A DNA stretch of 30,300 nucleotides, from assembly GCA_030668825.1 (NCBI GenBank), contig DAOVET010000029.1, forward strand, positions 1 to 30,300, in the 5' to 3' direction. Source of the DNA: Candidatus Heimdallarchaeota archaeon. Lineage in GTDB: Archaea > Asgardarchaeota > Heimdallarchaeia > Heimdallarchaeales > Heimdallarchaeaceae. The position numbers and the translations under genes are program-made. The notes under the pieces are model-generated. The model saw only the letters and a list, made by a program, of their open reading frames with translations, searched no databases and was not told where the DNA came from. Positions 2 through 28,660 of this stretch are shown here, piece after piece. Positions within the stretch are counted from its first letter, which is position 1, and every line of letters begins with the position of its first letter.

Positions 2-379
2 TGGAAACAACAATTACGATTGAGAAAAAAGACCACTCAGCTGTTTGTGATAGTACCTTTTAATAAGCTAATAGCCTTGCTTCGCTACAAAGCTGAGGAA
101 AAAGGAATACAAATTGAGTTAGTTGAAGAGTCCTATACTTCTAAATGTAGTTTTCTCGATAGTGAAATCCCTCAAAAACACCCCTCTTATATGGGAAAGC
201 GAGTGAAACGTGGTTTGTTCTGTTCTGCTACAGGTGTTCTGATCAATGCTGATGTCAATGCCGCATTTAATATTTTACTGAAAGGCGATCCGCAAGCACT
301 TCCACCTAGAAGTGTGGGCGGGGTAGGAGGGTACGTGGTTTACCCGCTTAGAGTGAGCTATCAAGCAATGACTCTCTAG
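2..379 (+). CDS. tnpB: TnpB (IS200/IS605-family RNA-guided nuclease), C-terminal part, truncated by the window start
   Basis: Frame is open from nt 2 (WKQQLRLRKKTTQLFV), which aligns with WKQNVHFWKKITQMFV of the full-length TnpB at 28573-29823. Contains LRYKAEEKGI, EESYTSKCS, RGLF and RuvC-III NADVNAAFNI. Confidence 0.93.
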   Translation, partial: WKQQLRLRKKTTQLFVIVPFNKLIALLRYKAEEKGIQIELVEESYTSKCSFLDSEIPQKHPSYMGKRVKRGLFCSATGVLINADVNAAFNILLKGDPQALPPRSVGGVGGYVVYPLRVSYQAMTL

Positions 380-464: not shown

Positions 465-1604
465 CTACTCGATTTCGATATAGGTTTCTTTTATTTTTGT
501 TTCCGCTTCGATAATTTCCTTTCTAGTATCTCTTCCTTTCTCAAGCACTTCCCAGAACCTCTCTACATAATCGGGATGAATTCCAGTTAGTACTCCTCGA
601 ATTGTTAAAATTGGTTCTTCTATAGAATTTAGAGAAACTTTTATGTCTCCTTTTTCGAATTTTTTGACTATTTTTCTTGTTTCAAATGTAGACTGATAAG
701 TTGTTGGCATTGTTATTGCTAAATAACCTAACTTAGCTCTAGTCACATCAGCTGTTAAACTTGAACTTTCATCTAATTCATTAAAGAAAAGATCAGAAAA
801 CCTTGTATTTTGAGCCTTCTCCAAAGTTTCAAATTCTTTATCAAGAGAAATAATTATGCCTAAACCTCTAGCATCTTTAGAGAATGATTTGAAGAAATCA
901 TTTAGATCCGCATAGAATTCCTCATGAGTACTTTCTTGAAGAGCTGAAAGAACAGTTGTAGTGAAGGTTTCTGCTAACAAATTATTGCTTTTTTCCAGTA
1001 CTGTTTCTATACTCTCATCTTCATAGAGTTTCAAGAGTTTTTCATTGTCAAATAATATGATTGGACAATGAGGACCAAGTGTGTCAAATCCGAGGTAATG
1101 TAGAGCTCTAGCAGAATTATATTGGACAAGTGAAGGTTCATCTTTTTCCGGTAATACGAAGATAACTGTTGGTGGTTCCCCTATTATATCAGCTAATAAC
1201 TTGCTAATAATAATGGTTCCAGCACTACCAGTACCGCCACCACTACCTATTATTAGGTGAAGAGCTAAATCGTCTGCATCTCTCCTTTCATCACGTTTGT
1301 AAAAGACAACTCTCTCCAGTTTAGATTTCATCTCCAGCTCTTTAGCTTTCAATTGTTTGTATGCTTTCTCAAAATCATAATCTGAGGAAGCAAATTCTTT
1401 TTCTCCAAACCAGAAGTTATCTGAGAAGTTACTGATTTTTGGTTCAAAATTATCAGCTAGATTCACTGCTAATGATTTTATGGCGATTTTACTTTCACGT
1501 AATTCTTGAATAAGTTTTTCACCTATTTTGCAACCTGCGTTACCAACACCTATAACTGATATAGATATCTTCTTTCGGAAGATTTTTCTTTTAAGCCAAG
1601 ACAT
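465..1604 (-). CDS. Tubulin/FtsZ superfamily GTPase, divergent CetZ-like, with N-terminal amphipathic helix
   Basis: T1 loop VIGVGNAGCKI; signature GSGGGTGSAG (nt 1218-1247); VLPEKDE...YNSARAL; T6 FDNEKL; T7-like FYADLNDF. GGAGGAGG Shine-Dalgarno lies within the end of the upstream gene. Confidence 0.88.
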   Translation of the reverse strand: MSWLKRKIFRKKISISVIGVGNAGCKIGEKLIQELRESKIAIKSLAVNLADNFEPKISNFSDNFWFGEKEFASSDYDFEKAYKQLKAKELEMKSKLERVVFYKRDERRDADDLALHLIIGSGGGTGSAGTIIISKLLADIIGEPPTVIFVLPEKDEPSLVQYNSARALHYLGFDTLGPHCPIILFDNEKLLKLYEDESIETVLEKSNNLLAETFTTTVLSALQESTHEEFYADLNDFFKSFSKDARGLGIIISLDKEFETLEKAQNTRFSDLFFNELDESSSLTADVTRAKLGYLAITMPTTYQSTFETRKIVKKFEKGDIKVSLNSIEEPILTIRGVLTGIHPDYVERFWEVLEKGRDTRKEIIEAETKIKETYIEIE

Positions 1605-2978
1605 TTAGAAACCTCCTCCTACTGACCTGATAATTTTGAGTATGTTTATCACCCATATAGCAATAATCATGATTGTTTTGAATATTTTCTGCGTTGATAT
1701 TGGAAATATCCTCATTGAAGCTACATATTCTCTTAGTTGTAACATTGTAACATTCTCTCTCTTTGCTTCTTCTGAATATTTTTCTCCGAATTCTACTACA
1801 TTTGCGAAAATATAATTGTCTAATTCCATGAGTGCTTTAATTTTGAATTTTTTAGCTTTGATACTGAAAGCCCATAATGGAAGAATAACATAAAAAACCA
1901 TCAATACTGCTATTAAAGCTGAGATAGTTACAACTAGAATTGTTGCGGGTTGTCCAGCTTTCAGAAACATAAAATTTACGTTATGTGTAGGCATTCCAGG
2001 AGGGGGAAATGAGTACATCAGCTGATTTATGTTACCCATAAACATCGCAATGATGATGATTAGAGTGGAAAGTATACCAGCTGTCGGTATGTTTTCTAGT
2101 TGGCTAATTGATCTTCCTCTTGACCACTTATCGCCTAAAGACCAAATTATGTCATAGTTTTCTCTCATTAGAAGAGTTCCATATTCTTTTCTGTAAACAT
2201 CCATTTTTTGTTTGATTGGTTTAAGAATTTTGGAATAAATTCGTGTATTAAAGAACATGTAGTAAACTGCTATAAAGAAGATATAATAGAGGAAGGGACT
2301 GAATATGCAAGTAATAATACCAAAAATAGCTGCAACAGGATGCCCATCAAAAGCTATTTGTAGCATTGGAATTTGAATACCTATACCTGTTGCTAGAGCT
2401 GCAAGAATAATGAGTGGGTTCTTTGGTAATTTTCTGTCGTAATATTTGTCATAGTACTCTCTGACAGGTTTTTCTAGCCATTCCACTCTCTTAGCTAGCG
2501 TTAAACTCAGAAAACCATCATGTGTATATTTAAGATAAAACAGTGATAGCAAAATAGCTATTAGAATTGGTGTTCCAACATTGAATATTATATCAATTAT
2601 TAATCTCCACCCCGCTGTCTGAAATGGCAACAAAACAAACAATAGTGTTGGAACAAACATTAATACAATGTAACTCCAAAGCTTAAGGAATTCTTTCCAT
2701 TTCAAAGATAAAATTGTATTTAATTTCAGTTTAAACAAGGCAATAGGTACAAGATAGAATCTTTTGAAAGGATTCATTAGTGCTTCAAGATAGATTGGAT
2801 TTTCAACTATTGCAGCTGTTCTTGGATATTTTTTGTAATGTTCATATAACATATTTTCAAAATCAAACGCTGGAACTTCGATATCATCAGGAACAACAGT
2901 TTTTGCTTTAAATGAAGTAGGTTTTTGAGGATTTGATTCCATAACAATTTCATAGAGTCTGTGTTTGCTTTTAATCAT
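1605..2978 (-). CDS. Polytopic membrane protein of unknown function (about 6-8 TM segments)
   Basis: 457-aa ORF with several long hydrophobic stretches. Its stop directly abuts the start of the tubulin-like gene (1605/1604). Alternative start ATG at 2942. Confidence 0.8.
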   Translation of the reverse strand: MIKSKHRLYEIVMESNPQKPTSFKAKTVVPDDIEVPAFDFENMLYEHYKKYPRTAAIVENPIYLEALMNPFKRFYLVPIALFKLKLNTILSLKWKEFLKLWSYIVLMFVPTLLFVLLPFQTAGWRLIIDIIFNVGTPILIAILLSLFYLKYTHDGFLSLTLAKRVEWLEKPVREYYDKYYDRKLPKNPLIILAALATGIGIQIPMLQIAFDGHPVAAIFGIITCIFSPFLYYIFFIAVYYMFFNTRIYSKILKPIKQKMDVYRKEYGTLLMRENYDIIWSLGDKWSRGRSISQLENIPTAGILSTLIIIIAMFMGNINQLMYSFPPPGMPTHNVNFMFLKAGQPATILVVTISALIAVLMVFYVILPLWAFSIKAKKFKIKALMELDNYIFANVVEFGEKYSEEAKRENVTMLQLREYVASMRIFPISTQKIFKTIMIIAIWVINILKIIRSVGGGF

Positions 2979-3032
2979 TTCGAAAGTGTTAGGGAATTAG
3001 TAAGAATTTTAATCTAGTACTTTTATGTTTTC

Positions 3033-4457
3033 TTGATAATATTGAGATTAACAAAAATAGTTTGCACAATAGGTCCTTCATCCAGTTCTGAGAATATTCT
3101 GAAAAAAATGATTGACAGTGGAATGGATTTAGCTCGATTGAATTTTTCCCACGGAAATCATCAAAGTCATGAAAAAACCTTCAATAATCTCAGAAATCTA
3201 TGCAATGATCTTGCAATTGGCATTGACATTAGTGGTCCAAAAATTAGATTAGGGAAGTTAGAGGAGATAAGAATTCTCAAAAGAGATGAAATTGTTAAAC
3301 TTACTACTAGGGACATAATTGGAAAAAATAATCTTATTCCAATCAATTATCCCATATTAACTAAGGAACTAAAAGTTAATACTTCTCTTTTCATAAATGA
3401 TGGTTTAGTTAGGTTGAACGCTGAATCAATTACAGATTATGAAATAGTTTGTAAGGTGATAGATGGGGGTGAAATTTCATCTAGAAAAGGTGTAAATATT
3501 CCAGATGCAGACTTATCTATAAGAGTACCAACTAAGAAAGATATAGTAGATATCGAAAAAGCTTGTGATTGGGAAACTGATTTTCTATTTATTTCATTTG
3601 TACGAAGCGTTGATGATCTTAAAAGAGTAAAAGAAATTGTTGAATCAAAAACTAGTAAAGACATTCAACTTATCGCAAAAATTGAACACCAAGATCCTTT
3701 AGATTCAATAAAAGAAATCGCTTCTTTTAGTAATGGTTTGATGGTTGCACGAGGAGATTTAGCTATTGAAGTAGGCCCTGCTAGGGTTCCTGTCTTGCAA
3801 AAACAATTAATCCAACTAGGTTTGGTTTTAGCTAAACCAGTTATTGTTGCAACACAGATGTTAGAATCCATGACTAAAGAACCCCTTCCTACAAGAGCTG
3901 AAGCAAGTGATGTTGCTCATGCAGTTTTTGAAGGAGCTGATGCTTTAATGTTATCAGCTGAAACAGCAACAGGAAGACATCCTCTCCTAGTTATGAAGTT
4001 AATGAAGGATATTATTTTAGAAGCTGAGAAAAACCTAGCTTTAGATCGTCCTTTAGTAGTTGATACTGAGGTTAATATTGGCAATGAAATAGGTATTTCC
4101 GCAGTTAGGTTGGCTAAGAGAATGTCAGTAAAAGCAATTATTGCTCTTACTCAGACTGGGTATACAGCAAGTATGGTTTCTAGAAATAGAGAAAATTTAC
4201 CTATTTATGCCGTTTCTCATAATCAATTTACTAAACGTGTAACAAGGTTATTTTGGGGTGTTCAACCTATTTTTCATAAGTATGAAGATAATTACGATGA
4301 GCTAGTATTCAATGTTATTAAGAAGCTTCATGAAGAAAAGTACATTGATGCAAAAGACAATGTTGTATTAGTAGCTGGATCAATGGTAGGAATCTCAGGA
4401 AAAACCCATACAATTCAGTTGTTAAATGTTGAAGAAACATTATCAACTGAGAAATAA
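3033..4457 (+). CDS. pyk: Pyruvate kinase
   Basis: TKIVCTIGP, RLNFSHG, GPKIR, KGVN, IAKIE, MVARGDL, ATQMLESM, PTRAE, DALMLSAETA. True start may be the TTG at 3042. Confidence 0.97.
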   Translation: MIILRLTKIVCTIGPSSSSENILKKMIDSGMDLARLNFSHGNHQSHEKTFNNLRNLCNDLAIGIDISGPKIRLGKLEEIRILKRDEIVKLTTRDIIGKNNLIPINYPILTKELKVNTSLFINDGLVRLNAESITDYEIVCKVIDGGEISSRKGVNIPDADLSIRVPTKKDIVDIEKACDWETDFLFISFVRSVDDLKRVKEIVESKTSKDIQLIAKIEHQDPLDSIKEIASFSNGLMVARGDLAIEVGPARVPVLQKQLIQLGLVLAKPVIVATQMLESMTKEPLPTRAEASDVAHAVFEGADALMLSAETATGRHPLLVMKLMKDIILEAEKNLALDRPLVVDTEVNIGNEIGISAVRLAKRMSVKAIIALTQTGYTASMVSRNRENLPIYAVSHNQFTKRVTRLFWGVQPIFHKYEDNYDELVFNVIKKLHEEKYIDAKDNVVLVAGSMVGISGKTHTIQLLNVEETLSTEK

Positions 4458-4524
4458 TCTCTTTTTCATGTAGCTAGCTGAAAAGTCTTAAAAATCCTTG
4501 CAACTAAATGCAATTGAAACAAAA

Positions 4525-5775
4525 ATGTCATGGATTCGTTCTATTTTTAGCAAAGGTAAGAAAAAATCAGCTGATGAATATCCTATCTTATTCAATGGCT
4601 TATACAGATTTAACCATTCGAACATTATAACTGATAAAGATCTGAATGGATGTGAAATTTCTGATACTCTATTTATTGAAGGAGATATAAAAGAATCACC
4701 AATTGGATTAGTTTTTGGTGAAAATTATGGGTTAAACATTCTTAAGAGTATGAAGAAAAGATTCAATGGTCAACTTCCCTCTTCACTTGTAATTACAACT
4801 CCATCTGGAGATTCAGATATCTATAGTAAACTTCCTTCAATTGAACTACCTTCTCTTTCCGAAGAAGAAATGACTTTTTTTCAAGGTAAGAAGTGGTATA
4901 CAGCAAATGAAGAAAGAATTAATTCTTATGTTGATAAATTGATCAGTAACAAATCATTAGTCTTTCTTTTCCCAGAAAATAATGCATTTGTTTTGGCTCT
5001 TTTTGAAGAAATAGCTCTGTATATCCTTTCTTCAAATAAACAGCCCGTTATGTTTGTACACTTGCCTGTTGCTAAAAAAAATATCATAAAAGAATTTTCA
5101 ATTATGACATTTATCTATGGTCTCTTAAGAAAATCTCAGAAGAATCATCTTCCCTATGTTCTAGTTGATGAAGAGAAACTCATCAAGAATAACCAAAACA
5201 AAGATTCAGAAGAAATTCTAGCTACTTTTGTCCAACGAGAAGCAAATCTAATAACAGATTTTATTATTGGTCTTCAACAGCCTTCAGAATTTTACCAAGT
5301 TGATCAAAGTAATTTCCTGAGAATTTTCAAAGATGCCAGAGGGATTTGCCGACTCATTAGTTTTGATGTATATGACAATAATCCTGAATTATCCCAACTT
5401 CTAGCAAAAATTGATGAAGGTGATAGTTTTTCATTAAAAACTAGAGCTACTAGAGGATTTTTCCTAATTCAACCTGGTCCTATTGGATTAACAACCGCAA
5501 GTTACAGAAGGATTAGAGAGAGATTCAGTAACTCAGATGTAATCTTCTCATTTCTACAAAAACGAGAAAATGGAGCAATTCTAAGAGGTATTTTAACTTA
5601 CAATATTTTACCCAGAGAAGTACTAAAACGTCTTGAAAATCTAGGAAAATTATTGATTAGCTTATATGACGAACTAGGTGATAGAATTATGTTTGAAGAT
5701 TCCACATTTTTAGGTGCAGTTTTCGATGCATCTAAATGGGCGATTTCTTTACCTGTTGTTGAGAAACTGAAGTGA
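4525..5775 (+). CDS. Degenerate tubulin/FtsZ-fold protein, paralog of 465-1604, lacking the GTP-binding signature
   Basis: Collinear similarity to 465-1604: HLPYVLVDEEKLIK vs HCPIILFDNEKLLK; EFYQVDQSNFLRIFKDARG vs EEFYADLNDFFKSFSKDARG; RATRGFFLI vs RAKLGYLAI; ILRGILT vs TIRGVLT; N-terminus MSWIRSIFSKGKKK vs MSWLKRKIFRKK. ATG 4525 is preferred over TTG 4498 because of the N-terminal match. Confidence 0.72.
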   Translation: MSWIRSIFSKGKKKSADEYPILFNGLYRFNHSNIITDKDLNGCEISDTLFIEGDIKESPIGLVFGENYGLNILKSMKKRFNGQLPSSLVITTPSGDSDIYSKLPSIELPSLSEEEMTFFQGKKWYTANEERINSYVDKLISNKSLVFLFPENNAFVLALFEEIALYILSSNKQPVMFVHLPVAKKNIIKEFSIMTFIYGLLRKSQKNHLPYVLVDEEKLIKNNQNKDSEEILATFVQREANLITDFIIGLQQPSEFYQVDQSNFLRIFKDARGICRLISFDVYDNNPELSQLLAKIDEGDSFSLKTRATRGFFLIQPGPIGLTTASYRRIRERFSNSDVIFSFLQKRENGAILRGILTYNILPREVLKRLENLGKLLISLYDELGDRIMFEDSTFLGAVFDASKWAISLPVVEKLK

Positions 5776-6009
5776 TTTTTCCAGTTCTTTTTTGGATTCT
5801 ATCAGTTCCAGGATTGAATTTATGCTGTTTAGAGCGATTTGTAGATACTTCTTATTACCAAACTTAGCCAAGTTTCTTCCAATGCGTAAAATATATAATA
5901 GCTCTATCTTAAATCAACTTAAATTAGTCTCATAAAGTTCATGCTGTTGTCATTAACTTTAAATATCTCTCGTGAGACGAAACAATGTATTGGAAAAAGA
6001 GGATTCACA

Positions 6010-9000
6010 ATGGACAAAAGACTTCGAACATTAATAGGCGCTTTTATTCTGACAGTTACCTTTAGTTCTGCTGTTGTGATTGGAGTAATTCTGCCGATTA
6101 ATTCTATAAATATAATGAACGATATTAATGCTGGCTTAACAGAATTTGGGCAGTTAACTGAAGATGATATAATACCTAATGATGGTACTGGTACATATTC
6201 TGACTGGATGCATACAGCTAGAAGTACCAATGAGTCAAGATTTTTTGATCAAGCATTTATCGAATTCTTTAATGTAAGTGATCGTGAAGGTTACTTGGAT
6301 TATAATACTCCAATTTCTTATTTCTATGTGCAAGGAGAACTAGTATTTGATATAATTATCAATAAAACGGTGTTTGAGTACAATAAGGAAGAGGATTATA
6401 TTGTATTTACTAGTAGAAGACAGTATATCTATAATTCTACAGCGTCCACATTATTTGGTAATGAGACAGTTTTGAATTTCAATTACATGTGGCCTTATTA
6501 TATTGAAAAGTTTGGAAATGGAACAGAATATGGTTTTCAAGCTTACATAGCCTCTTATCTCCTAGGATCTGAAATTGATCTTCTCAACTCAACATACACT
6601 TATAGTGAAATTGCATATGCAGTTTTGAACAGAGCTTATGCTGAGAGTGAAGGTTTAGTAGATACAGGAACATATCTACCTCACAATTGGATAAGTGTTC
6701 GTCCAGCTTTCCAAGATTTAGATATCGATCAAGCAACAAGCTATAAAATACTCTATAATGCAACTTATGGAGGTAATGATTATTCAGTATTAAGTGGAGA
6801 CAAAGGTTCTGCGAAATTCTTCTTGGATTTAGTAAGAGGATTAGATTATACTGAACCTGATGACCTAACCGTAGATGTTGTACAACTATTAGCTGACATT
6901 TACGACATTGATACTCCAACAGAAATTGAATCAGCAAAATCTTTTGCAGCATATTTGGGTTATCTTCTAGGAAAACCATCACTTGATTGGTTATACGATA
7001 ACAAAATATCATATGTCTGTACTAGAACTGCAATGGAATGGGTTGTTGGTGTCGAGGACCCATTGCTAAACGGTATGAAATTTCCATTACTTATGAATGA
7101 AACACTATCTTCATCGAGTGTAGATTGGGACAAAGACACTTATTATGCAGAAAGATTAGGTCTGAATAACATTGAAGAGATGGGTTCTATAATTGGAATA
7201 GCTAACATACCCTATTTTCAATACTCTAGATCAATGGATGTAGTTATGGAAGATAATCTTGCTTATGTTCTAGAAGGTGGAACAGATATCAAAATAGTAA
7301 ATACTACTGATTCACTCTTCAGAGCAATCGGTCAATATGGAGATTATGATGGCCAAATCTATGATTATACTGTAATTGATGGATATATCTATGCAGTAGA
7401 GGGAACTGCAGGTTTAGAAATTCTTAATGCAACAAATCCATACTCAATTGATCAAATTACTCAATGGAATTTTGGAAATAATGATATGAGAGATGTTACT
7501 AACGTATTTTATCCTATTGGTATTGCACCTTTCGATGCCTTAGTCATAGCTAACGGTAATTATGGAGTAAGAGTTGCCTCTCTTAGTGGTGATACTAAAT
7601 CTGTTAGTTCCGTTTATACATTCCTAAATACTTCTGGAGAAGCTATTGCCATAGATGCAAGAGTAGACATTGTAAATTCTGATGCTTTTGTTGCTCTAGG
7701 AACTGATGGTATTGATGTGTTAGATATAGGCCAAATTCTTACAAAGGATATTGAACTAGTATGGCATTATGATTCTGCTAACTACTCAAATCTAAAAGAT
7801 GTAAGAGATGTTAAAGTTGAAGGATTATATCTTTATGTTTTAGATGCAATCGAAGGATTACTAATCTTCCGAATAGAATCAAATAAAACCTTAACAGAAT
7901 ACAGTCAAATTGCTGCTTATCCTGGAGATGAGCCTTTCAATGACATATATATCGATGGAAACCAAGCCTACTTAACTCAAGGTAGTGATGGTTTTATGGT
8001 TGTTGATATCTCAGATAAACACAATCCTTCAGAAAATTACAGATTCAATGGAACTGATCATCTTGGAACAGCTTTTGGTATCTACGCTCATGGTAATGAT
8101 ATTTATTTAGGAGATTACGAACAAGGTCTAGTTCATTTAGAGTTTAGCTATCTTACTAGTCAATTTGATTTTGTTGAGAAGGATGAACTTCATACATTTG
8201 TTGAATGCTGGCAAAGAGATAGTAAAGTTCAATTTGGTTTATGGGATTTGGGTCCAGCTGCAGTAGATGCCGGAGTAGAGCCTTTTAGTTATACTTATGA
8301 CTCATTTGCTGTTCAACCAGATATAGAAAAAGGATTGAGACAACAATGGAATGAATTCTTCCTAAGGCCATTTGCTTATTCAGCTCTGGTAGATTCAGCC
8401 TTGTTCTATGAAGAAACTGTACACGTTTACAATGCACAATCAGGGTCGCCTTATCGTCAAATGGATAAGTATGATTTATATTGGATGCATGATGCAAACT
8501 TCTTAAATGCAAGCTTTATTCAGGTTGGAAAATGGAATAGTTTGTATAATATGAATTTAAAACCAAGAGATATGTTCTTAACATTCTCGTTACCAGGACA
8601 AGTAGGGAGAGATCCATTCCACATGCAATCAATGATGGTCGAGCCAGTAACAGGTAGTGTTGTTGAAAGAACAGATAGAATACAATATAATACATTTGCA
8701 ACCACTTTTCTCGAAGCTTTTAGTCTCCTTAATAGATCCAAATACACTGATTCTGTTCAAAACCTTCCTGTAATTCATCGATATCCAACTTGGCATCAAA
8801 CATTCACTGCATTACCAGGAAGTATGGCAACAATCTTTTGGCAAGAAAATATTCATTTTGCAACAAAGATATTTTATGACGCAATTAAAGAACAATTCTT
8901 AGACAGAATAAAAGGGGCAGATGCCTCTCGTACAATTGGTGCTTTTGGTTCTATGTTTATAGTTACTACAGGTTTCATCATTACTTCCGTAGTCCTTCAC

Positions 9001-9036
9001 AGATTTAAACCAAAAGAAGCGATTCCAGACAATTAG
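6010..9036 (+). CDS. CD36/scavenger receptor class B-like membrane protein with inserted LVIVD-repeat beta-propeller
   Basis: One TM helix at each end around a large sequon-rich ectodomain. CD36-like motifs FFNVSD, RTAMEWVVGVEDPLL, VEPVTGSVVERTDRIQYN, IFWQE. LVIVD-type repeats (e.g. DIYIDGNQAYLTQGSDGFMVVDISDKHNP) at ~7234-8150. ATG 6010 is the likely start; the ORF is open from 5941. Confidence 0.72.
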   Translation: MDKRLRTLIGAFILTVTFSSAVVIGVILPINSINIMNDINAGLTEFGQLTEDDIIPNDGTGTYSDWMHTARSTNESRFFDQAFIEFFNVSDREGYLDYNTPISYFYVQGELVFDIIINKTVFEYNKEEDYIVFTSRRQYIYNSTASTLFGNETVLNFNYMWPYYIEKFGNGTEYGFQAYIASYLLGSEIDLLNSTYTYSEIAYAVLNRAYAESEGLVDTGTYLPHNWISVRPAFQDLDIDQATSYKILYNATYGGNDYSVLSGDKGSAKFFLDLVRGLDYTEPDDLTVDVVQLLADIYDIDTPTEIESAKSFAAYLGYLLGKPSLDWLYDNKISYVCTRTAMEWVVGVEDPLLNGMKFPLLMNETLSSSSVDWDKDTYYAERLGLNNIEEMGSIIGIANIPYFQYSRSMDVVMEDNLAYVLEGGTDIKIVNTTDSLFRAIGQYGDYDGQIYDYTVIDGYIYAVEGTAGLEILNATNPYSIDQITQWNFGNNDMRDVTNVFYPIGIAPFDALVIANGNYGVRVASLSGDTKSVSSVYTFLNTSGEAIAIDARVDIVNSDAFVALGTDGIDVLDIGQILTKDIELVWHYDSANYSNLKDVRDVKVEGLYLYVLDAIEGLLIFRIESNKTLTEYSQIAAYPGDEPFNDIYIDGNQAYLTQGSDGFMVVDISDKHNPSENYRFNGTDHLGTAFGIYAHGNDIYLGDYEQGLVHLEFSYLTSQFDFVEKDELHTFVECWQRDSKVQFGLWDLGPAAVDAGVEPFSYTYDSFAVQPDIEKGLRQQWNEFFLRPFAYSALVDSALFYEETVHVYNAQSGSPYRQMDKYDLYWMHDANFLNASFIQVGKWNSLYNMNLKPRDMFLTFSLPGQVGRDPFHMQSMMVEPVTGSVVERTDRIQYNTFATTFLEAFSLLNRSKYTDSVQNLPVIHRYPTWHQTFTALPGSMATIFWQENIHFATKIFYDAIKEQFLDRIKGADASRTIGAFGSMFIVTTGFIITSVVLHRFKPKEAIPDN
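7234..8150 (+). repeat. About 7 LVIVD-type protein repeats (beta-propeller blades)
   Basis: Recurrent D-V-x-V-x-G-x-Y-x-Y-V-x5-G-L-x-I-x-D/N pattern roughly every 40-48 aa. No nucleotide-level repeat. Confidence 0.8.
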
Positions 9037-9178: not shown

Positions 9179-12100
9179 GTGGAAGAGGTAACAAACGTGT
9201 CTGAAAATTCAGTTACTAAGAAGATGTCTGCCGCTGCTTTTTTCAATGAAAATAGAGCAATTGCAGGCTTTGGAAATTCTATGCGAGCTGTGTTTACCAG
9301 CATACGCGAATTAGTTGAAAATGGCTTAGATGCTGCAGAAAACAGAGGAATAAATCCTAACATCTCAATTGATTTAAGAAAACTATCTAGTAGAGAGATA
9401 AATGAACTTCTTGATGTTAAACAATATAAGAAATTAGAGAAACACCTAGACTTCTTACAACTTACCTGTACAGATAATGGTACAGGTGTTCCTGGACATC
9501 TTATTGCTGATCTTTTCGGTAGAGTTCTCACAGGAACTAAGTATGGAGTTATTCAGACACGAGGACGTTTTGGTTTAGGAGCCAAGATGTGCTTATTGTA
9601 TTCCATGTCTTCTGTTGACCTCCCAGCTAAAATTAGATCAAGATATTTCATGGATGATATAACACATGAAATGCACTTAATGATCAACCTTGAGAAAAAT
9701 GAACCCATAATTATGGAGCAACGAGAATTTCTTCCGGGGGATGAGGGTTATCTTGAAGAAGCAGGAACTGAAATTTCAATTACATTTACTGGTGCATGGA
9801 ATCTCGCCAAGAACAGCGTTAGAGAATACTTTAGACAACTAGCAATAATCACTCCTTATTCCTATTTCCAAGTGAAAGTACCAGGTGATAAAGAGGGTGA
9901 ATATGAAGAATTCATTTTTGAGAGTGTTGTAGATGACATGCCCCCTCCTCCTCAAGTTGTCAAGATTCATCCATATGGGTGTGATATCACACAGTTCAAA
10001 TCAGAATTGAGCGTAAATAATGATAAAAAACTCAAAGAGTTTCTTGCAAATCAATTTATGGGAGTAACCAAAGAAATTGCTGAAGATTTCTTTCAGTTAT
10101 TAGAAATAGATCCCAATAAACATCCTAACGAGTTAACTTCAAAAGAAATACGTAGAATTGTACATGAAGGATTTGTGAAAGCCCATCAAGAAGCAAAAGA
10201 AGTAAAACGAAAACGTGATAGAGTTTTTCAGTTTGATCCACCAAAAGGGACAGCACTTTCTCCTCTTGGTGCAGGGAGATTGAAGAGAGGGCTTGAAAAA
10301 GAATTAAATCCTAAATTTGCTGAAGCTATTTCTAGACCACCAAAAGCTTATTCTGGACATCCGTTTGTGGTTGAAGCTGCCTTAGGTTATGGTGGAGGTG
10401 TAACAGAAGCTTCTCAACAACGAGGTGCTAATGTTCAAGATAATAAAATAATTTACAGATATGCAAACAGAATTCCTCTGATTTTTGGTGCAGGCAATGA
10501 TGTTATTAGTCATGTTGTTTCTTCCATAAGATGGAATGAATATGGTCTTACTAGACAATCAGATCCTTTAGCTGTTACAGTTTCAATAGTTAGTACAAAA
10601 ATACCTTTTCCAGAGACAAGTAAAGAATATATCTCCATTGTTCCAGAGATTGAAGAAGAAATAAGATTAGCTCTGCAACAACTTGGAAGAAGATTAAAGA
10701 CCTTCCTGGGTAGGGCTAAAAGAAGACGAAGAGAACATGCCAGATTATCACGATTCGTCAAATCTGCGCCTATAATTGTAGAAAATCTTTCTCAGATTAT
10801 TGAAGATGAAGGTATCGGGATGGCTGATTTTCGATTTGAGAAGAATAGAATTGCGTCTTCTTTAGCTCATGGCTCTCCTAAAAAAGCAAAGTTATTCATG
10901 CCCCTAGGACAAAGACTTTTCGGTCTAAATATTTGGTGTTCTACATCAACTCAAAATATATTAAAGAACAAGAATATCTTGTCAGTTTCTGATTTCCTAA
11001 TAACACCAACTAAGGATTTAATGTATATTTTAACACTTGATGAACAATCTATTTACAATATTAAATTAAGAACCATCTTTGAGTTAGATAAGGAAGGACT
11101 AAGTCCTCAATTTGACTCTAAAATCTTTGTTTCAAGAGCTGTAGAGAGACGATTCGACAAAAATTTTGTTTCATTAAAAGATGCTTTAAATCGAAGATGG
11201 ATTCAAAATAGTTACCATTATTTGGCTACTGAATCTGTAAAATTAAAAACAGTCTCTGGTCTTTTAGAGAAATTATTTGAGAACAAGAAAGATGAGCTAA
11301 TTAATCAACTTTTACTCCAAAACAGAAAAAATGATGGTTCAAAGACTTCTCCTAAAAGCGAATATGGTACTGATTCTCTAACTGCTAAAGGTCAATTGAA
11401 AATTGAACATTTATTCCCACCTTTCAAAGTCTTCAAGAAGCTATCAAATGAAATTCTAGCAGCTGATTTAACTGTTGAAGAGTTTATTTATCAAACACAA
11501 CTTCCAAATGGGATTAACTATCAACAGGAAATAACGGCGATATTCATTGATTACTTAAAAGAAGTATTCATTAAAATGTCAAAGAAGTTTCCTACATTCA
11601 ATGCTACAAACATAACTAAAATGACTCCTGATTGGACAGATGGATATACAAAAAATGCCTTTCACAGGAGAAAAATTAGAACAATTGAAAGCTTCATTAA
11701 CACTTCTACAGATGATCTTGTACAAGTTAAAGAAATGGAAAGGATTTTGTATTCAACCTATCTAGAACTCCTTGTTAAACAATCTCCATCAATCAATCTT
11801 TCAGCTTTTGAGTTTATCGAGAGTAAGGGGCTCAAAAATGATGAAGCTTTGGTGATCAAATCATTGGCAGCCAAGGGTATCAAATCTTTAGCTCAACTGT
11901 TATATTTTGCAGCTGAAGAAATTCAAGATAAGAAATTAGTTGATCTTGCAGAACTACTTATGAAAGAAACAAAATTCACAATTTTGTCTTCTCTGCAAAT
12001 ATCTAAAAAAGGTCATAATTCTAGTCATATTAAGATTATACCTAGTAATGTGGAAAAAGAACTGCACCGAAACCAGATCTTTAATTCTTCAACCTTTCTC

Positions 12101-15100
12101 TCTTATTCTTCACTGCAACTAAGAAAAATGGGTCTGAAGAAGAGAGAAGTTGACCAGATCAAGAAAACCCTTGGAACGCCATTACCAAAGTGGTTGGGAC
12201 AAGAAGAAATGCTAAAAGAATGTGGGGTTATTGTACTGGAGGAGTTGTTCTTCAATTCAGCTGAAACTTATTCATTATTAGCAGAGAAGAAAAAGAAATA
12301 TTTTGAATTAGCAAATGTTCTCAGAACACCTATTATATTCTCATTCCCACAACTTAGAAGATCATCCTACTTATTGAAAGAAGTGGGGATTAACTGCTTG
12401 GGTCGATTTCTGATTTGGCCTGATGAAGAATTAGCAAGTATATTGGGTTACAAAATAGAAGAAATAAAAGCAATGAAAGATGCTGTTTCTCTAGCTGAAA
12501 TTGAGAAGAATAGAAAAACATTCAGTAAACCTCTATCTCAGTTGAACAGTCTATTTCCACGATTAATCACTTATTTTGGAGGAACTGATGAAACCCTTCA
12601 AGATTTATTTTATCTCTACCCCTCAGAAAAAGTAAGTTTATCACAGGGATTATGGAAGAAAATTGATCACTTGAGCAAGCTTTCTCAGCTTGAAATTATT
12701 GAACTTGCACAATTATTCTCTAAGAACTCCAAGAAATTAGATGAAGCGAAAGAAGCTCTTCTAAGATTGAATGTAAGAAACATTATTACTATTAGACAAT
12801 TTCTAGACCTTATCCCTGAAATCATTGAATCTGAGCTATCAGCAGCTTCCCATAGAAAAATTATCTTAGAGCTCTATCATATGATTAAGAATCGAGATAT
12901 TGAGGAAACAAGTGACTTAAACAAACAAGTTCTATTGATTAGTGAATATGATGAGTTTGAAAGAGCTTTAAGTTTACCAATATCGAGAATTGGTAATCTT
13001 ACTTTACAAGAATATGAAGATTTACGAACAGAAAACATTATAGCTATACATCAATTATTTGAATACTCAACAAAAGAATTGAAATCTATTCTTAACAAAA
13101 CTGAAGATGGAATTAATCATGTATTCAAAGATTTCAAAATTGAGCAGAAGGGAACTAGTTTCTTTATCAAAGGAGAAAGAAGTCGGCTAAAATCCTTAAT
13201 TTCCTTTGAATATGAGGAATCTGAGCGGTTTTCCACTCATGAAATTGAATCACTGATTCTAGCAGGTTATGATTCAGTTGACAAGATTTTCTTCTTATCC
13301 CACCCCTTAACTTTTTCTGCTTCTTTAGTCCATTGGAATGTAATCGACAAGTTTAGAAAACTATTACGATCCCCACTCACATTAGTAGCTTGGGAGAAAG
13401 TTGTTAAGAAAAAAGTGCAGGATGAAGAAACTGAAACTATAAATGAAATTGATGAAATTCAAATCTCTACTCTTTCTACCGATCAATTGAACACACTTAG
13501 AAATAGTGGAATCTCTAGAATTGTTGATTTGCTGATCGTTAAGAAGGATATTCTTGAGTCTATCTTGAGTATTAGTCCAAAAGAAGCAGCTTTAATGCAA
13601 AGAAACTTAAGAATAAGTGACACTGGAACAGATCTTTCAGAGCTAGATATCTTTAAACCACATATTGTTGATATCCTAGAAGAATATAATTTAGTTACAA
13701 TTGAAGACCTTTATTTCTCCACTTCTGAACGCGAATGGACTGTTTCTGAACTTCCATGGAGGATAATTAAATCATTCAAACAAGTATTGAATTTACCACT
13801 GAAATATATCTCCGATATGCTGGATAAGGAACTTATTGAAATCCTGAAGAAAGTTGAAATTACAACTCTGCTAGGATTCATGCTTATCTCACCAGAGAAT
13901 TTAATGGAAAAAACTGGCATTCCAGATGAACGTTTTGAAAATATTAAGCGAGGACTAGCATTATCTGATATTTTGGGTACTTTCACACTGCCAAGTTACT
14001 ACATCCCCTCTCTAACATTTGAACAGACAGAGATTTTAAGAGGAAATAAAATTCCAACTATAGCCGATTTCATTCTAACATCGAATCAGAAATTAACCAA
14101 ATTGCTGGAAATCCCATCTAAAGATCTAACTGCAATAAAAAATTCGTTAACTGCTCAGACCATACAGGCTTCATATGAAGATAGGGGCATATTTGCTACA
14201 GAAACAAAGCTATTTGACAAATTAGAACAAAGACAATTAAGCCGTGATTCAATTATCCAATTTGAAAGATTTCAGACAATTCAAGAAATATATTATGTCG
14301 TAGAGGAAGAATTCTATCCATCAAACCCAGATTTGTGGTCGAAAGTATCAGCTGTTAAAACAGTGCTAGATTTACCATTAAGAATCTTCACTGAAATATC
14401 AGAATATTCGCTAGAGGTATGGGAACATAATAATATCAAGTATGTGCGCCAACTCCTCTTTTTACCTGATGAAGAAATAAAAGATCCAGTTCTCTATAGG
14501 TCGATCTCCACATATTCCTCTAAAATGCTAGAAATGCGTGCATTTCATTATTTTGCAAAACTACCATCATCCGTTTACAATTCTTCATTCTTCAGTAATA
14601 TAGTTCAAGATTTCGAAGAAAAAACTCTTTCAGATGTTGTGACTGATACTAAAGTTATTTCACTTCTACTCTCAAAAGATAAACAATCTCTTACTGATAA
14701 TTATAATTTAACACTCATTCGAGCTCTTCTCGAACTTCCTATCAGAATAACTCCATTTTTCAATAGAATCAAGAAGATTAGAAGAGAGGAGTACAAAAAT
14801 ACTAAAATTGGTGATGTATTTGACATCGATTTAGTAGACCATTCAGCTCTAGCTCCATTTTATAATAAATTGCAGGAAGTTGATTCTTTAAATAACATGG
14901 TTGCTGATTTGGCAGTTCCAATTTCCTCAATGGGATTGCCAAGAGAATTAGCTCTAAAATTAAGCAAATCATCAATTAACACTTTAATAGACTTCTTCTC
15001 AACACCAGTTAAAACCATTTCAGAAATAACAGGAATACCTCAAAGATATATTAGAGAAATTCAAGATAATCTGGATTATTCATTAATTCAATCGTTTAAA

Positions 15101-18100
15101 AAAGCTCAAACCCATGACATTATTGCTTCTGAACTCATAACAGATAAGCATATTGAATCCTTAAAGAAAATAGGTATTCTTGATCTTGAATCACTTTACT
15201 ACTCAGCTGAAGCACAGAACATATCTTCAGTTTTACCAGTCGAAAACTATGCAAAAGTGAAGGAAATTCTCTCAGGATCAATAAGATTTATTGGCTTCTT
15301 TGCCTCTGATGAGATCAAAAGGCTAGAATTTTATAATATTAATTCCGTTATAGATTTAGCTTTGCTAGACAAAAAAGAACTATTTCATATAACGCAGAAT
15401 CCAATTTACAAGGAATTTCATGCACTAGATATCCTTTCCTTAGATGAAGTTGCGGAGAAGAGAGCAGAAACCGCTCTATCTCTAGAATTATTGCCTTCGA
15501 TAGAGGAAGATTATCTTGAGAAGATTAAACAATTGGGTATAAACTCAATTCAAGATTTCAATTCTAGAATGTCTGAATTAAGGGATTCTCACCCTCATTT
15601 AGTTAAGCTTGATGTATTTCGTGATGTTCAGCTATATCTTTCATCAGTTGCCTTCCTTGGATTGAATAATCAACAAGTACAGAAATTAGTTTATTCTGGA
15701 GTGGGAGATATACTTTCATTTATTACTGAAGATGTTTCAACCATTGCAATAATTCTAGACACGGAAGAAACGGAAGTACGAAAGTACTTAGATAAGATAA
15801 GCTCTGAAAATCTTCTTGAAGAAATAGAAAAGAAAGGAGTAAAACTGACAGACTTTCCTGTTCTTTCCAAATCAACAGTGAACTATCTACTAAAATCTGA
15901 CAAGGATCTTGTTCAGGATGTCTATAGTCAATATTATCAAGCATTTACAATAGCTAATGTTTCTGATGATGTTCTGAGAGACTTCCTTAACAGCTGTAAT
16001 GTGTCAATTTACCGCATTAAGGAGTTATCACCAGAAACAAAAATAAAATTGTCACAAATGGGTATTCTTAGAGTTATCGATTTCTTATGCACTAATGACT
16101 CAGAATTAAAGAATGCTTTAGGTGGCAAAATTGGTAAAGATATTAATGAAGTTCGAAGGGGCAATTTCACTCTGATTAAGGGAACTGAACTGCTACTAAA
16201 TGAACCAATTCTCAATATTTTAAAGGATCTTTATTTTGAACCATCGAAGAAAACGGTTGAGGATTTGTTTGGGTTTGTTCCTGAGCATTTATTGCAATTC
16301 ACTGAAACTGAAAGAATAGAAAAAATCACCAATATATCATTTGTTGAGCAGTTGGTAAGTTTCCTGAGCTTGAGTACTCTTTCTCTTACATATTTTGATG
16401 TTGAAACCAAAGCAGTTCTTTGGAATATCGGAATTAAACATGTGATTGAACTAATCTCAACAAATATACAAGATCTCAAAGATATTCCTAGAGAAGTAAT
16501 TAGAGCTATAAGAGAGTTTCAACGCAGCTTCAATCTAAGTGTTAGAATGTCAGAAACATTTTCCCCATATATTGAGCAAAAACTTAGTTTACCTAAAGAA
16601 ATACGAGGAAAATTCAAGACCTATGGTCTAACCACCGCTCTATTCCTTTTTGATTTTATGCACCATCCTTTGTTTGAACTAACAAATAAAGAGAAAAATC
16701 TTCTAAGTACTGCTACAGCAAACTTATTCAAACCTGTTACTTGGTTAGTAGATCATTCGGATCTCAAACTAGAAGACTTAACTATTTTTAGAGATAAGAA
16801 GGCAAACAACATCATTTCTGCCCTCTTGATACTGGATGATGATAAACAATCAACTGATGCCAAATATTTCTCTGAACAGTTTTATTCCAAATTTAAAGAA
16901 GTGGTCAATGAGAACCTCTTCAAAATTAAACCTCCTGAATGGTCACTTAAACTTGCTGACTTAAATCTCATCAAAGATCAAAAACTTTTGAGGAAGCTAA
17001 AAACAGCCAAAATACTATATTTGGATGAACTGCTTTCTTTGGATAGTAGCATTATTGAAAATCATTCCGTGTATGAGGAGTTAAGGTCAATGCTACTCTC
17101 ACTTAAGAATTTCAGTGTTGCATCTATAGATGGCTTATCTGTAACTAATGTTAAGAAATTGAAACAAAACGGTGTAAGATATGTATTCCAGTTCTTATTA
17201 ATGCCTGTATCTTATTTATCCCAATTCATGAATGTAAGTGAAGAAAAAATTGAGGAAATAAAGCTAAACATTGATTTAGAAGTTCTAGAATCAAACGCAA
17301 AACTAGTCGGATTAGATATTCAACTTATTGGAAAATTAAATGATAAGATAAAGAGGGTTTTGATGGAACACGGGTGTGTTTCACTTACACAGGCTGCACA
17401 CCTTCAGATAAACGAGCTTCCTCTAACTGAAGAAGAGATGCAAAGTGTCAGAGAACTAGTCTCTATACTTCAAACTCCTATTACATTAATTGGTAAAGTT
17501 CTGAAAATGAGCAGAAAGAATGTTGACCAACTAGTAGACGAAAAAATATTCACATATACTGATTTGTTAGAAATACCTCAAGAAAAATGGCCATCTAGTC
17601 TTAAGAAGTTAATAACCAATCAGCAAACTGATCCCACATATCTGATTAAACAGTTATACGGCATCCAAAAGTTTGGTATGTCAGTAGAAGAACTAGGGTT
17701 GACCAAATCAGTTACAACTTCGATGTTACAAACAGGATTATCTACAGTGGATCATCTCCTTTATGTACCTGACACATATTTGACTTCTAAAGGCAAAATT
17801 AAACTTACTGATCTTCTTGAATTAAGAGACAGGTTGGGTAGAAGCGTTAGTATTTTACCTAATTTAACAAATGAGACAATTGAATACTGTTTGAGTAATA
17901 ATTATCAAATCATCGAAGACTTATTGATTTATTTCAAGGATCATCCGAAGAAAATACGAGAAGAAATTACTCCTTCCCTAAGAGCTATTAAGACAATTTC
18001 AGAAGTAGGATTTGTTAAATCATTATCTGAAACTGAACAAGATCTTCAGAAAAGAGGGTATTATTCTTATACCTCTTTACTAACATCCGCGAATTTTAAG

Positions 18101-28515: not shown

Positions 28516-28660
28516 TGAGTTGTTGTCATCTTGTCATAATAGACAAGAGTTGTTGAACTTCTTTTTTAGAGGTCATTGTGGGTCTACACTCACTCTACGT
28601 GGATACATCACGTATCCTCCTACCCCGTTCACACTCCGCTTAGGTAGTGCTTTCGGATCG
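28515..28660 (-). ncRNA. Putative TnpB omegaRNA scaffold / IS right end
   Basis: Homologous to 287-421. Perfect hairpin GGATAC-N5-GTATCC at 28601-28617. Similarity ends at AACTCAT (28521-28515, - strand). Confidence 0.6.

Follow-up and report, generated by a model that had tools for sequence, protein, structure and literature searches.

Near one end of a 30,300-nucleotide stretch of DNA from a Candidatus Heimdallarchaeota archaeon (contig DAOVET010000029.1, positions 1 to 30,300; the whole stretch is called the window below) lie two genes for tubulin/FtsZ-like proteins. The product of the first, at 465..1604 on the minus strand (379 residues), is called P0001 or SHORT throughout, and that of the second, at 4525..5775 on the plus strand (416 residues), P0002 or LONG. 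An initial annotation made from the sequence had taken them for an active GTPase and a pseudo-GTPase. We found that the two proteins are ancient paralogues, that P0002 is predicted to have the tubulin/FtsZ fold with all of its GTP motifs replaced, and that a gene for a polytopic membrane protein (1605..2978, minus strand) accompanies them. P0001, the membrane protein and P0002 are most likely parts of an order-specific, membrane-associated tubulin-superfamily module. With a probability that we put at roughly 60%, P0002 acts in it as a nucleotide-free cap, nucleator or stabiliser that binds P0001 on its GTP face within an assembly anchored to the membrane.

Sequence and predicted fold of the two tubulin-like proteins

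P0001 matched the Pfam Tubulin family (PF00091) with an E-value of 1.3e-10 and 42.3 bits, the cut-off being 33 bits. Its motifs T1 (GVGNAG, residues 19-24), T4 (GSGGGTGS, 120-127), T6 (DN) and T7 (ADLND, 232-236) are intact, and D236 aligns with the last aspartate of NVDFAD in M. jannaschii FtsZ, where the family consensus for T7 is nAdlnD. By the Pfam match over the cut-off and the intact T1, T4 and T7, P0001 belongs to the tubulin/FtsZ GTPases and is predicted to bind GTP. Its best solved relatives in single-sequence searches were 4b45 (E 6.5e-7) and 4b46 (E 1.1e-5). A word-indexed homologue search returned 58 relatives of P0001 and only six of P0002, itself included; where the sources name these relatives, they are assigned to Candidatus Heimdallarchaeota or Heimdallarchaeaceae. 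The 387-residue homologue P0027 of AB_125, 82% identical to P0001, is named 'Tubulin-like protein CetZ' by one source.

When Pfam Tubulin was searched for in four whole genomes of the search set (G005, G006, G001 and G000, two of them single-contig), one canonical FtsZ and SHORT were the only matches. Many FtsZ-using archaea have two FtsZ paralogues, according to PMC9871819, and the tubulin-like module might stand in for a missing second FtsZ.

The identification of P0002 by sequence alone failed, as Pfam, NCBIfam and a phmmer search of the PDB gave no meaningful match. None of the 15 P0002-type proteins matched Pfam Tubulin at E<=0.01 and none of six P0002 cluster representatives is named by any source, so it had been reasonable to expect that standard annotation would call such a protein hypothetical. 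It also follows that surveys based on domain matches undercount the tubulin-family complement of Asgard archaea. Among the curated NCBIfam families, none reached its cut-off with P0001 or P0002. To go beyond the six proteins of the word-indexed search, an exhaustive profile search was needed; over 1.84 billion representatives it yielded 35 matches to P0002 at E<=0.001, including 19 at E<=1e-30; the closer ones carry the same degenerate loops.

The similarity between P0001 and P0002 is far beyond chance. BLASTP aligned them with an E-value of 8e-12 and 31% identity over 180 residues, in the C-terminal halves only. When 15 P0002-type and 23 P0001-type sequences were compared by hhalign, residues 57-388 of P0002 were joined to residues 12-372 of P0001 in 326 collinear columns with 98.9% probability (E 1.3e-17). 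The collinearity over most of the length that had been read from short shared stretches (DNEKL/DEEKL, KDARG/KDARG and IRGVLT/LRGILT) thus stands, and these stretches, both open reading frames (ORFs) and all motifs quoted earlier were found where they had been placed. A LONG profile that includes GTP-competent forms also matched TubZ, CetZ and FtsZ chains in the PDB. By BLASTP, hhalign and profile matches, P0002 is a homologue within the tubulin/FtsZ superfamily.

The AlphaFold2 (AF2) model of P0002, built from a 26-row alignment, had a mean predicted local distance difference test score (pLDDT) of 88.3 and a predicted template modelling score (pTM) of 0.89. Foldseek matched it to at least 500 PDB entries at E<=0.001, and the top ones were M. 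jannaschii FtsZ (1w5e, E 8.5e-16), B. cereus TubZ (4ei7, E 1.3e-15) and CetZ2 (4b45, E 2.5e-15). The matches to FtsZ, TubZ and CetZ had a probability of 1.0 over 320-365 columns, with template modelling (TM) scores to the target of 0.65-0.76 (0.73 for 4b45). The predicted structure is the two-domain tubulin/FtsZ fold, with a Rossmann-like GTPase domain, helix H7 and a C-terminal domain, as the initial annotation had supposed.

P0002 has an N-terminal extension of about 55 residues that opens with MSWIRSIFSKGKKK. P0001 likewise opens with a short hydrophobic-basic peptide, MSWLKRKIFRKK, and analogous peptides are present in other families; they are candidate membrane- or partner-binding peptides. 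A start of P0002 at an alternative TTG codon at 4498 is possible; its orthologues start with MSW, which corresponds to the ATG at 4525.

Replacement of the GTP motifs in P0002

In P0002, T1 reads FGENYG (residues 64-69) for the GVGNAG of P0001 and T4 reads FPENNAFV (149-156, nucleotide 4969) for GSGGGTGS, while T6 is DE in place of DN and T7 is VDQSN (259-263) in place of ADLND. N263 sits at the final aspartate of M. jannaschii NVDFAD. In FtsZ and tubulin, the acidic residue of T7, which in FtsZ is the last aspartate of the motif NxDxxD, activates hydrolysis in the adjoining subunit. P0002 therefore has none of the features by which tubulin/FtsZ GTPases are recognised, that is, T4 of the form (G/A)GGTG(S/A/T)G, a glycine-rich T1 and an acidic T7. 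Judged by these motifs, it would not bind GTP in the canonical way, in agreement with what had first been proposed.

To follow the motifs across genomes, we use the label f1 for the family of the window (five genera); f1-f4 make up one Heimdallarchaeia order, and f5 and f20 are other Asgard families. L-numbers denote loci of related genomes or records and G-numbers genomes of the search set. T1, T4 and T6 are replaced in all 18 aligned f1 LONG sequences, the one of the window included, and the T7 acid in 16 of them; both sequences from genus g5 retain the aspartate. From one f1 genus to another T1 reads FGENYG, FVGSEG, FLEE-S or LTGSYG, and T4 reads PENNAF, TDNTCF, AGNDGF or SSNSRF. Among close orthologues of P0002 the replaced loops are conserved (FxENYG and xENNAF).

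LONG proteins of f4, f2 and one f5 genome have recognisable glycine motifs in T1 and T4 and an acid in T7 (glutamate, once aspartate), the commonest forms being GxGGAG, GSGGTGVG and DLNEF. In f3 the LONG motifs are partly altered (GAGSTGVG, GSDSIGVG). We also inspected ten distant relatives of P0002, 413-454 residues long and 16-19% identical to it, which have the same N-terminal extension of about 55 residues. Most of them retain GxGGAG, GSGGTGVG and a T7 ending in glutamate, and nine of the ten matched Pfam Tubulin at E<=0.1, three of these over the cut-off. The dead pocket is a derived state confined to f1; the LONG orthologues of the sister families keep GTP motifs. SHORT motifs are intact in f1, and T1 is non-canonical in f4 (SCGDxG). 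In f3, T4 of SHORT is lost (SSDGFSTAF and SSGTFSSGV; L037 6629-7804 and L039 1740-2915), which is the opposite of the f1 pattern.

Phylogeny and selection

A maximum-likelihood tree of 62 rows was computed by a quick search, with the Shimodaira-Hasegawa-like approximate likelihood ratio test (SH-aLRT) as the only support value and ten FtsZ-type proteins of the same class as the outgroup; eight loci (15 near-duplicate rows) were left out. LONG and SHORT together formed one clade against the FtsZ-type outgroup (SH-aLRT 100). SHORT was monophyletic with a support of 96, LONG with 89 and the f1 LONG proteins with 100. The LONG and SHORT subtrees both track the genome families, so the duplication predates the order, and LONG and SHORT are ancient paralogues.

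The stem branch of f1 LONG measured 1.65 substitutions per site, against 0.92 for f1 SHORT, and the f1 LONG tips were several times longer. In f1, LONG has clearly changed strand, evolved several times faster and been stripped of all canonical GTP contacts together with the T7 acid. The ratio of nonsynonymous to synonymous substitution rates (dN/dS) of P0002 was 0.18-0.36 in all 15 pairs of close orthologues; it was 0.13-0.15 for the neighbouring pyruvate kinase, 0.08-0.11 for P0001 and 0.05 for the membrane protein. Selection on P0002 is thus relaxed yet clearly purifying, and the gene is not a pseudogene.

Among the public sequencing runs searched, no RNA run carrying the locus was found. 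One run (X20), described as 'RNA-Seq' in its text and probably DNA, had short contigs on P0001, the membrane protein, the kinase and the LVIVD gene and none on P0002, which has no bearing on expression.

The membrane protein and the organisation of the locus

The two tubulin-like genes had been presented as a divergent pair about 3 kb apart. The pair is real and 2920 bp (1605-4524) separate its members, but this gap is filled by two genes, and one of them, overlooked at first, belongs to the same unit. It encodes the membrane protein of 457 residues, in which hydropathy indicates about seven hydrophobic segments. Its stop codon (1605-1607) abuts the start of P0001 at 1604 with zero intergenic bases. 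The other is a pyruvate kinase gene (3033..4457, plus strand; Pfam PK, E 1.1e-95, and PK_C, E 4.1e-30). By the ORF coordinates, a divergent intergenic region of 54 bp (2979..3032) lies between the membrane protein/SHORT operon and the pyruvate kinase/LONG array, and it may contain a bidirectional promoter. In two further public runs, belonging to two studies, DNA contigs cover 521-5990 and 521-6306 with 10 and 13 letter differences, respectively, so the gene arrangement is not an assembly artefact.

Gene maps were drawn for 35 loci from related genomes and for 41 loci found via the membrane protein in named records. In all 41 of the latter, whatever the family, the membrane protein gene is followed by SHORT on the same strand. 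In f2, f3, f4 and one f5 genome the three genes share a strand in the order LONG, membrane protein, SHORT, and neighbours are separated or overlap by a few bases only; this arrangement is complete in 13 of the 16 loci, and the remaining three end at contig edges. In f1, LONG is on the opposite strand from the other two genes. It is directly divergent from them, 67-138 bp away and without the kinase in between, in five loci (L026, L027, L028, L045 and L057); elsewhere it stands behind the kinase, as in the window, and in three loci upstream of the LVIVD gene. Pyruvate kinase adjoins LONG throughout f1-f4 in varying orientation. The LVIVD gene is the downstream neighbour of LONG in f1 loci, and none was seen in the mapped f2-f4 loci. 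By this gene order, the unit is a trio of P0001, P0002 and a dedicated polytopic membrane protein.

The membrane protein matched no family in Pfam, NCBIfam or PADLOC. Its cytoplasmic motifs are strongly conserved, and its AF2 model is all-helical with a pLDDT of 73.8. Foldseek with this model gave no match at E<=0.001. The best hits, all non-significant, were gustatory and odorant receptors of insects, a type of seven-helix ion channel, with E-values of 0.18-0.3, probabilities of at most 0.98 and TM-scores of 0.37-0.45; a fold resembling such seven-transmembrane channels may be taken as a weak lead. An Atlas search with the membrane protein returned unnamed clusters only, with recognition below the usual mark. 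PADLOC, which covers defence systems, matched none of P0001, P0002, the membrane protein and the LVIVD protein, after which the idea of a defence system was dropped.

Distribution of the module in Asgard genomes

We surveyed 400 Asgard genomes by profile search. The membrane protein was detected in 29 of 30 f1 genomes and in the genome of the window itself, in the single f2 genome, in two of three f3 genomes, in all 12 f4 genomes and in one of 22 f5 genomes. Elsewhere there was one borderline match in f20 (E 7.6e-4, among 135 genomes) and none in the other families. Results with the SHORT profile at E<=1e-12 were alike, except that all three f3 genomes were matched and that there was no match outside f1-f5. 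The module was found in 46 of 47 genomes of one Heimdallarchaeia order and in one further genome, and in none of about 330 other Asgard genomes. The sole copy outside the order (L041, G052:C52, f5) comes from a contig of 4 kb, and the tree places its proteins inside genus f4g11, so misbinning or a recent transfer is likely.

Of the 31 f1 genomes, 27 gave a LONG match and 30 a SHORT match, which agrees with the expected co-occurrence of the two genes. The two share a contig in 20 genomes and are on separate contigs, most of them short, in seven; in one assembly of 1.2 Mb neither was found. The f1 LONG matches contain no internal stops and are full-length in most of the 27 genomes, spread over the five genera, the rest ending at contig edges. 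In G007 and G012 (86% and 89% complete) neither query detected LONG.

In two loci LONG is missing from an otherwise preserved neighbourhood. In L060 (Candidatus Heimdallarchaeota archaeon AB_125) and L061 all the other genes are there and 71-84% identical to those of the window, namely a topoisomerase VI B fragment, LVIVD, kinase, membrane protein and SHORT. Only about 230 and 180 bp, respectively, lie between the LVIVD gene and the kinase, with no LONG in between. This is a clean natural deletion of LONG, at about 3300-3530 in the coordinates of these loci. With LONG lost and both the membrane protein and SHORT kept, P0002 seems to be an accessory, non-essential component rather than an obligate subunit of a co-polymer.

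Predicted contact between P0001 and P0002

A 1:1 complex of P0001 and P0002 was modelled from separate alignments with GTP included. The score was 0.86 (median of three runs, in a setup that differs from that of the method's calibration by its custom alignments and the ligand), whereas the best of three controls reached 0.01; the mark of 0.86 is attained by 58 of 80 solved complexes and by two of 110 mismatched pairs. The runs agreed in at least 71% of contacts, and the pLDDT of the partner was at least 81. The heterodimer modelling that had been suggested as a check passed its controls.

On the P0001 side, the predicted interface comprises residue 22 in T1 and residues 71-76, 153-161 and 191-203, all on the nucleotide face, together with the C-terminal tail (356-378). 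On the P0002 side it comprises 255-273, which include T7, 309-346 and 359-374. The contact in the model is of the canonical longitudinal protofilament type, with the non-catalytic T7 of P0002 placed over the GTP site of P0001. Conservation is higher in the contact residues of P0002 than in its other residues (0.680 against 0.602); among 5000 random sets, not matched for burial, 20 were as high. The same columns are also conserved in f2-f4 (two of 5000 such sets as high). The former nucleotide face of f1 LONG shows lower conservation than its other residues (0.500 against 0.619).

Possible role of P0002

In the reading that we prefer, P0001 would be the polymerising GTPase, and P0002, as a nucleotide-free accessory subunit, would dock its conserved T7 face on the GTP face of P0001 in a longitudinal contact. 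Since Asn263 replaces the catalytic aspartate, docking would not trigger hydrolysis, and P0002 would in this way cap, nucleate or stabilise GTP-bound P0001 at one end of the filament. The basic N-terminal peptide that both subunits share, and the membrane protein, would locate the assembly at the membrane. The partner roles proposed at the outset are thereby narrowed: a capping or nucleating one is favoured, whereas the deletions in L060 and L061 argue against an obligate co-polymer subunit.

Several observations weigh against this reading. L060 and L061 retain the membrane protein and SHORT, so the other two parts work without LONG. The score of the complex may reflect likeness to the abundant solved longitudinal contacts of tubulin and FtsZ rather than binding. 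The predicted contact residues of P0001 are less conserved than the rest of that protein (0.727 against 0.824; 4973 of 5000 random sets, not matched for burial, were as high), and so is its contacting C-terminal tail (0.708 against about 0.82). In f1, LONG lies off the operon and is co-directional with the pyruvate kinase, LVIVD and topoisomerase VI genes, which would fit an unrelated new role too. The only signs of a membrane association of the tubulin-like proteins are gene order and the basic N-terminal peptide. Finally, the support for the LONG clade is only 89 SH-aLRT in a quick search without bootstraps.

A bolder version can be put forward tentatively. P0001 and P0002 may form a two-subunit, membrane-anchored machine on a seven-helix membrane protein, with one working nucleotide site per pair, in which the families silenced different subunits, LONG in f1 and apparently SHORT in f3. 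The dead subunit would then set filament polarity or nucleation at the membrane protein, like a template or cap. If true, this would be an independent re-run of the functional asymmetry of alpha/beta-tubulin in the closest archaeal relatives of eukaryotes.

As an alternative, P0001 and P0002 could build an obligate heteropolymer in which heterodimers alternate head to tail (ABAB), as in alpha/beta-tubulin, BtubA/B and AtubA/B, with one working site per dimer. The two ancient paralogues share one operon across the order, and the predicted longitudinal heterodimer has a non-catalytic T7 over the GTP of P0001; the degeneration of different subunits in different families (LONG in f1, SHORT in f3) would also fit if one site were sufficient. 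We nevertheless consider it unlikely, because L060 and L061 keep SHORT and the membrane protein with LONG cleanly lost and because LONG was not found in G007 and G012, 86% and 89% complete. The former nucleotide face of f1 LONG, its would-be second interface, is moreover less conserved than the rest, the model itself being 1:1 only.

It is also conceivable that P0002 became a scaffold independent of P0001, either with a new partner such as the LVIVD surface protein or as a static scaffold at the membrane. In f1 the LVIVD gene invariably comes next after LONG, whose direction is that of pyruvate kinase and not that of the membrane protein and SHORT; the stem branch of LONG is long and its evolution fast, and the predicted contact residues of P0001 show no special conservation. 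This explanation is doubtful, however, as 20 of the 27 f1 genomes with LONG have it only a few kb from the membrane protein and SHORT (in five loci it is directly divergent from them), and as no surface set of LONG is better conserved than its T7 face, both in f1 and, to the same degree, in f2-f4. The complex model also passed its controls, and searches of Pfam, NCBIfam and PADLOC gave no family that would link P0002 to another function.

That P0002 binds a nucleotide or some other ligand in a rewritten pocket, and is not a true pseudo-GTPase, seems very improbable. The replaced loops conserved among close orthologues could mark a new ligand site, but the T1 and T4 positions vary freely among the f1 genera, and of all the mapped sets the nucleotide face is conserved least. 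A decaying pseudogene or an annotation artefact, which the failure of family searches by sequence and an evolution faster than that of the neighbours might suggest, can hardly be reconciled with open frames free of internal stops across 27 f1 genomes and five genera, dN/dS values of 0.18-0.36 in 15 of 15 pairs, a confident fold prediction and the same sequence in DNA contigs of independent runs.

Whatever the role of P0002, the Heimdallarchaeia offer a natural series in which both subunits are GTP-competent, LONG is dead, SHORT looks degenerate, or the dead subunit is deleted, and the same membrane protein is present in every member. This makes nucleotide binding, capping and membrane anchoring testable with few recombinant proteins. 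Eukaryotic cell biology depends heavily on tubulin-family polymers whose subunits are not equivalent, and how a subunit arises that holds GTP without hydrolysing it is an old question. The system described here is a variant of this known theme and is relevant to Asgard cell biology.

Comparison with known tubulin-superfamily systems

Against the PDB, the best match of the SHORT profile was TubZ (4ei7, E 2.9e-16, positions 12-346 to residues 15-371). The LONG profile also matched this chain best, over almost its full length (E 4.5e-14), and CetZ (3zid) with an E-value of 6.4e-11. For both paralogue families the solved relatives rank as TubZ, then CetZ and FtsZ. True tubulins were marginal: with the SHORT profile AtubA had an E-value of 7.7e-4 and BtubA of 1.2e-3, and OdinTubulin was marginal as well.

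CetZ, a group of archaeal cell-shape proteins of the tubulin superfamily, is the closest solved relative of P0001 by single sequence (4b45, described as Haloferax volcanii CetZ2, and 4b46), whereas the SHORT and LONG profiles both score TubZ above CetZ, a ranking by search scores. The characterised CetZs are reported to be single GTPases of Euryarchaeota (Duggin et al. 2015). None of them is known to be accompanied by a paralogue that is dead and a polytopic membrane protein of its own.

TubZ (4ei7, deposited as 'RepX') resembles both paralogues most closely by profile and is among the top Foldseek matches of P0002. TubZ partition systems are borne on plasmids or phages and work with a DNA-binding, centromere-binding adaptor. 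The present module, unlike them, is chromosomal and vertically inherited across an order, and its fixed partner is a membrane protein. A partition system of this type was rejected: the locus is chromosomal and syntenic and the neighbours are the membrane protein, pyruvate kinase and the LVIVD gene, although no search for a TubR-like gene was made.

With alpha/beta-tubulin, BtubA/B and AtubA/B the module shares the presence of two paralogous subunits. The predicted position of the P0002 T7, devoid of a catalytic acid, over the GTP of P0001 resembles that of beta-tubulin over the N-site GTP of alpha-tubulin. At the matching T7 position, beta-tubulin carries a lysine. The role of E254 is described in PMC13394414. 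Beta-tubulin, BtubB and AtubB themselves bind GTP, unlike P0002, in which no nucleotide site can be recognised, and unlike the subunits of obligate tubulin heterodimers, P0002 has been lost in related lineages. An assignment to the alpha/beta-type class was therefore rejected, as it calls for two GTP-binding subunits in a stable longitudinal heterodimer, and P0002 lacks the nucleotide motifs and has been lost in two relatives; the longitudinal heterodimer is itself a prediction. The Asgard AtubA/B and the Heimdallarchaeales alpha/beta-tubulin are, as far as the available text of PMC13394414 and PMC13371889 goes, true tubulins and a different family.

Santana-Molina et al. 2023 (PMC9871819) reported a CetZ-like group, 'Asg.Tub', whose members occur in Heimdallarchaeia and Lokiarchaeia next to genes of unknown function. 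As a tubulin/CetZ-related paralogue group it fits, by the description in the accessible portion of that paper, P0001 and the GTP-competent LONG proteins. In the same portion, a partner without GTP motifs and a conserved membrane protein are not mentioned, and matches to the SHORT profile at E<=1e-12 were, unlike Asg.Tub, limited to one Heimdallarchaeia order and a single genome outside it. Compared by description only, Asg.Tub may include P0001 or the GTP-competent LONG forms. The cytoskeletal system had been called undescribed, and this holds for the partner without GTP motifs as far as that portion of the text goes, but perhaps not for its GTP-competent members. In the limited collection covered by our literature search, no paper combined 'pseudo-GTPase' with tubulin and FtsZ, and none gave an account of the three-gene module.

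FtsZl1 (Pfam Tubulin_2; Makarova and Koonin 2010, PMC2875224) is a divergent GTPase predicted to act in membrane remodelling with membrane proteins, and its operon partners are vWA proteins, P-loop GTPases, protein kinases and OmpA. It is thus, like P0001, a divergent tubulin-superfamily GTPase tied to membrane proteins; unlike in the operons described there, genes for vWA proteins, P-loop GTPases, protein kinases and OmpA are absent near the module. This assignment was rejected: PF13809 matched four of ten GTP-competent LONG relatives with 13.9-16.3 bits against a cut-off of 27, and neither P0001 nor P0002.

The chloroplast protein ARC3 resembles the proposed P0002 in that an FtsZ-like domain regulates an FtsZ polymer, inhibiting Z-ring assembly, without forming a polymer itself. 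This FtsZ-like domain is not known to carry GTP-binding motifs. ARC3 differs in being a multidomain eukaryotic protein with a MORN domain, and it is related to P0002 by fold only.

Other genes of the window

Downstream of P0002, the LVIVD-repeat protein of 1031 residues (5941..9036, plus strand; Pfam LVIVD, E 8e-6) is followed on the same strand by a topoisomerase VI subunit B-type ORF of 4193 residues (9179-21760; Pfam Topo-VIb_trans, E 1.3e-52, residues 355-520). Its C-terminal extension of about 3600 residues contains repeats resembling RAD51D_N or helix-hairpin-helix (E 1.4e-21), and related loci hold fragments 59-89% identical to it at the same position; it would be an unusually giant Topo VI B. 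A topoisomerase VI A/Spo11 gene (21757-23166, plus strand) overlaps it by four bases. A functional linkage of the module to these topoisomerase genes was considered and dropped, the support being family-level synteny alone.

Further along the plus strand are an ORF of 570 residues (23817-25529), for which Pfam contains no family at E<=0.001, a Ras-family small GTPase (25568-26167; Pfam Ras, E 8.2e-36) and a HEAT-repeat protein of 783 residues (26164-28515; E 1.1e-29). The Ras and HEAT-repeat genes overlap by four bases and are likely a two-gene operon of eukaryote-like signature proteins. TnpB/Cas12f-like (OrfB_IS605) genes or fragments stand at both ends of the window (2-379, plus strand, and 28573-29823, minus strand), and a TnpB-like fragment or gene that is 63-70% identical was also seen beyond SHORT in L048, L058, L062 and L077.

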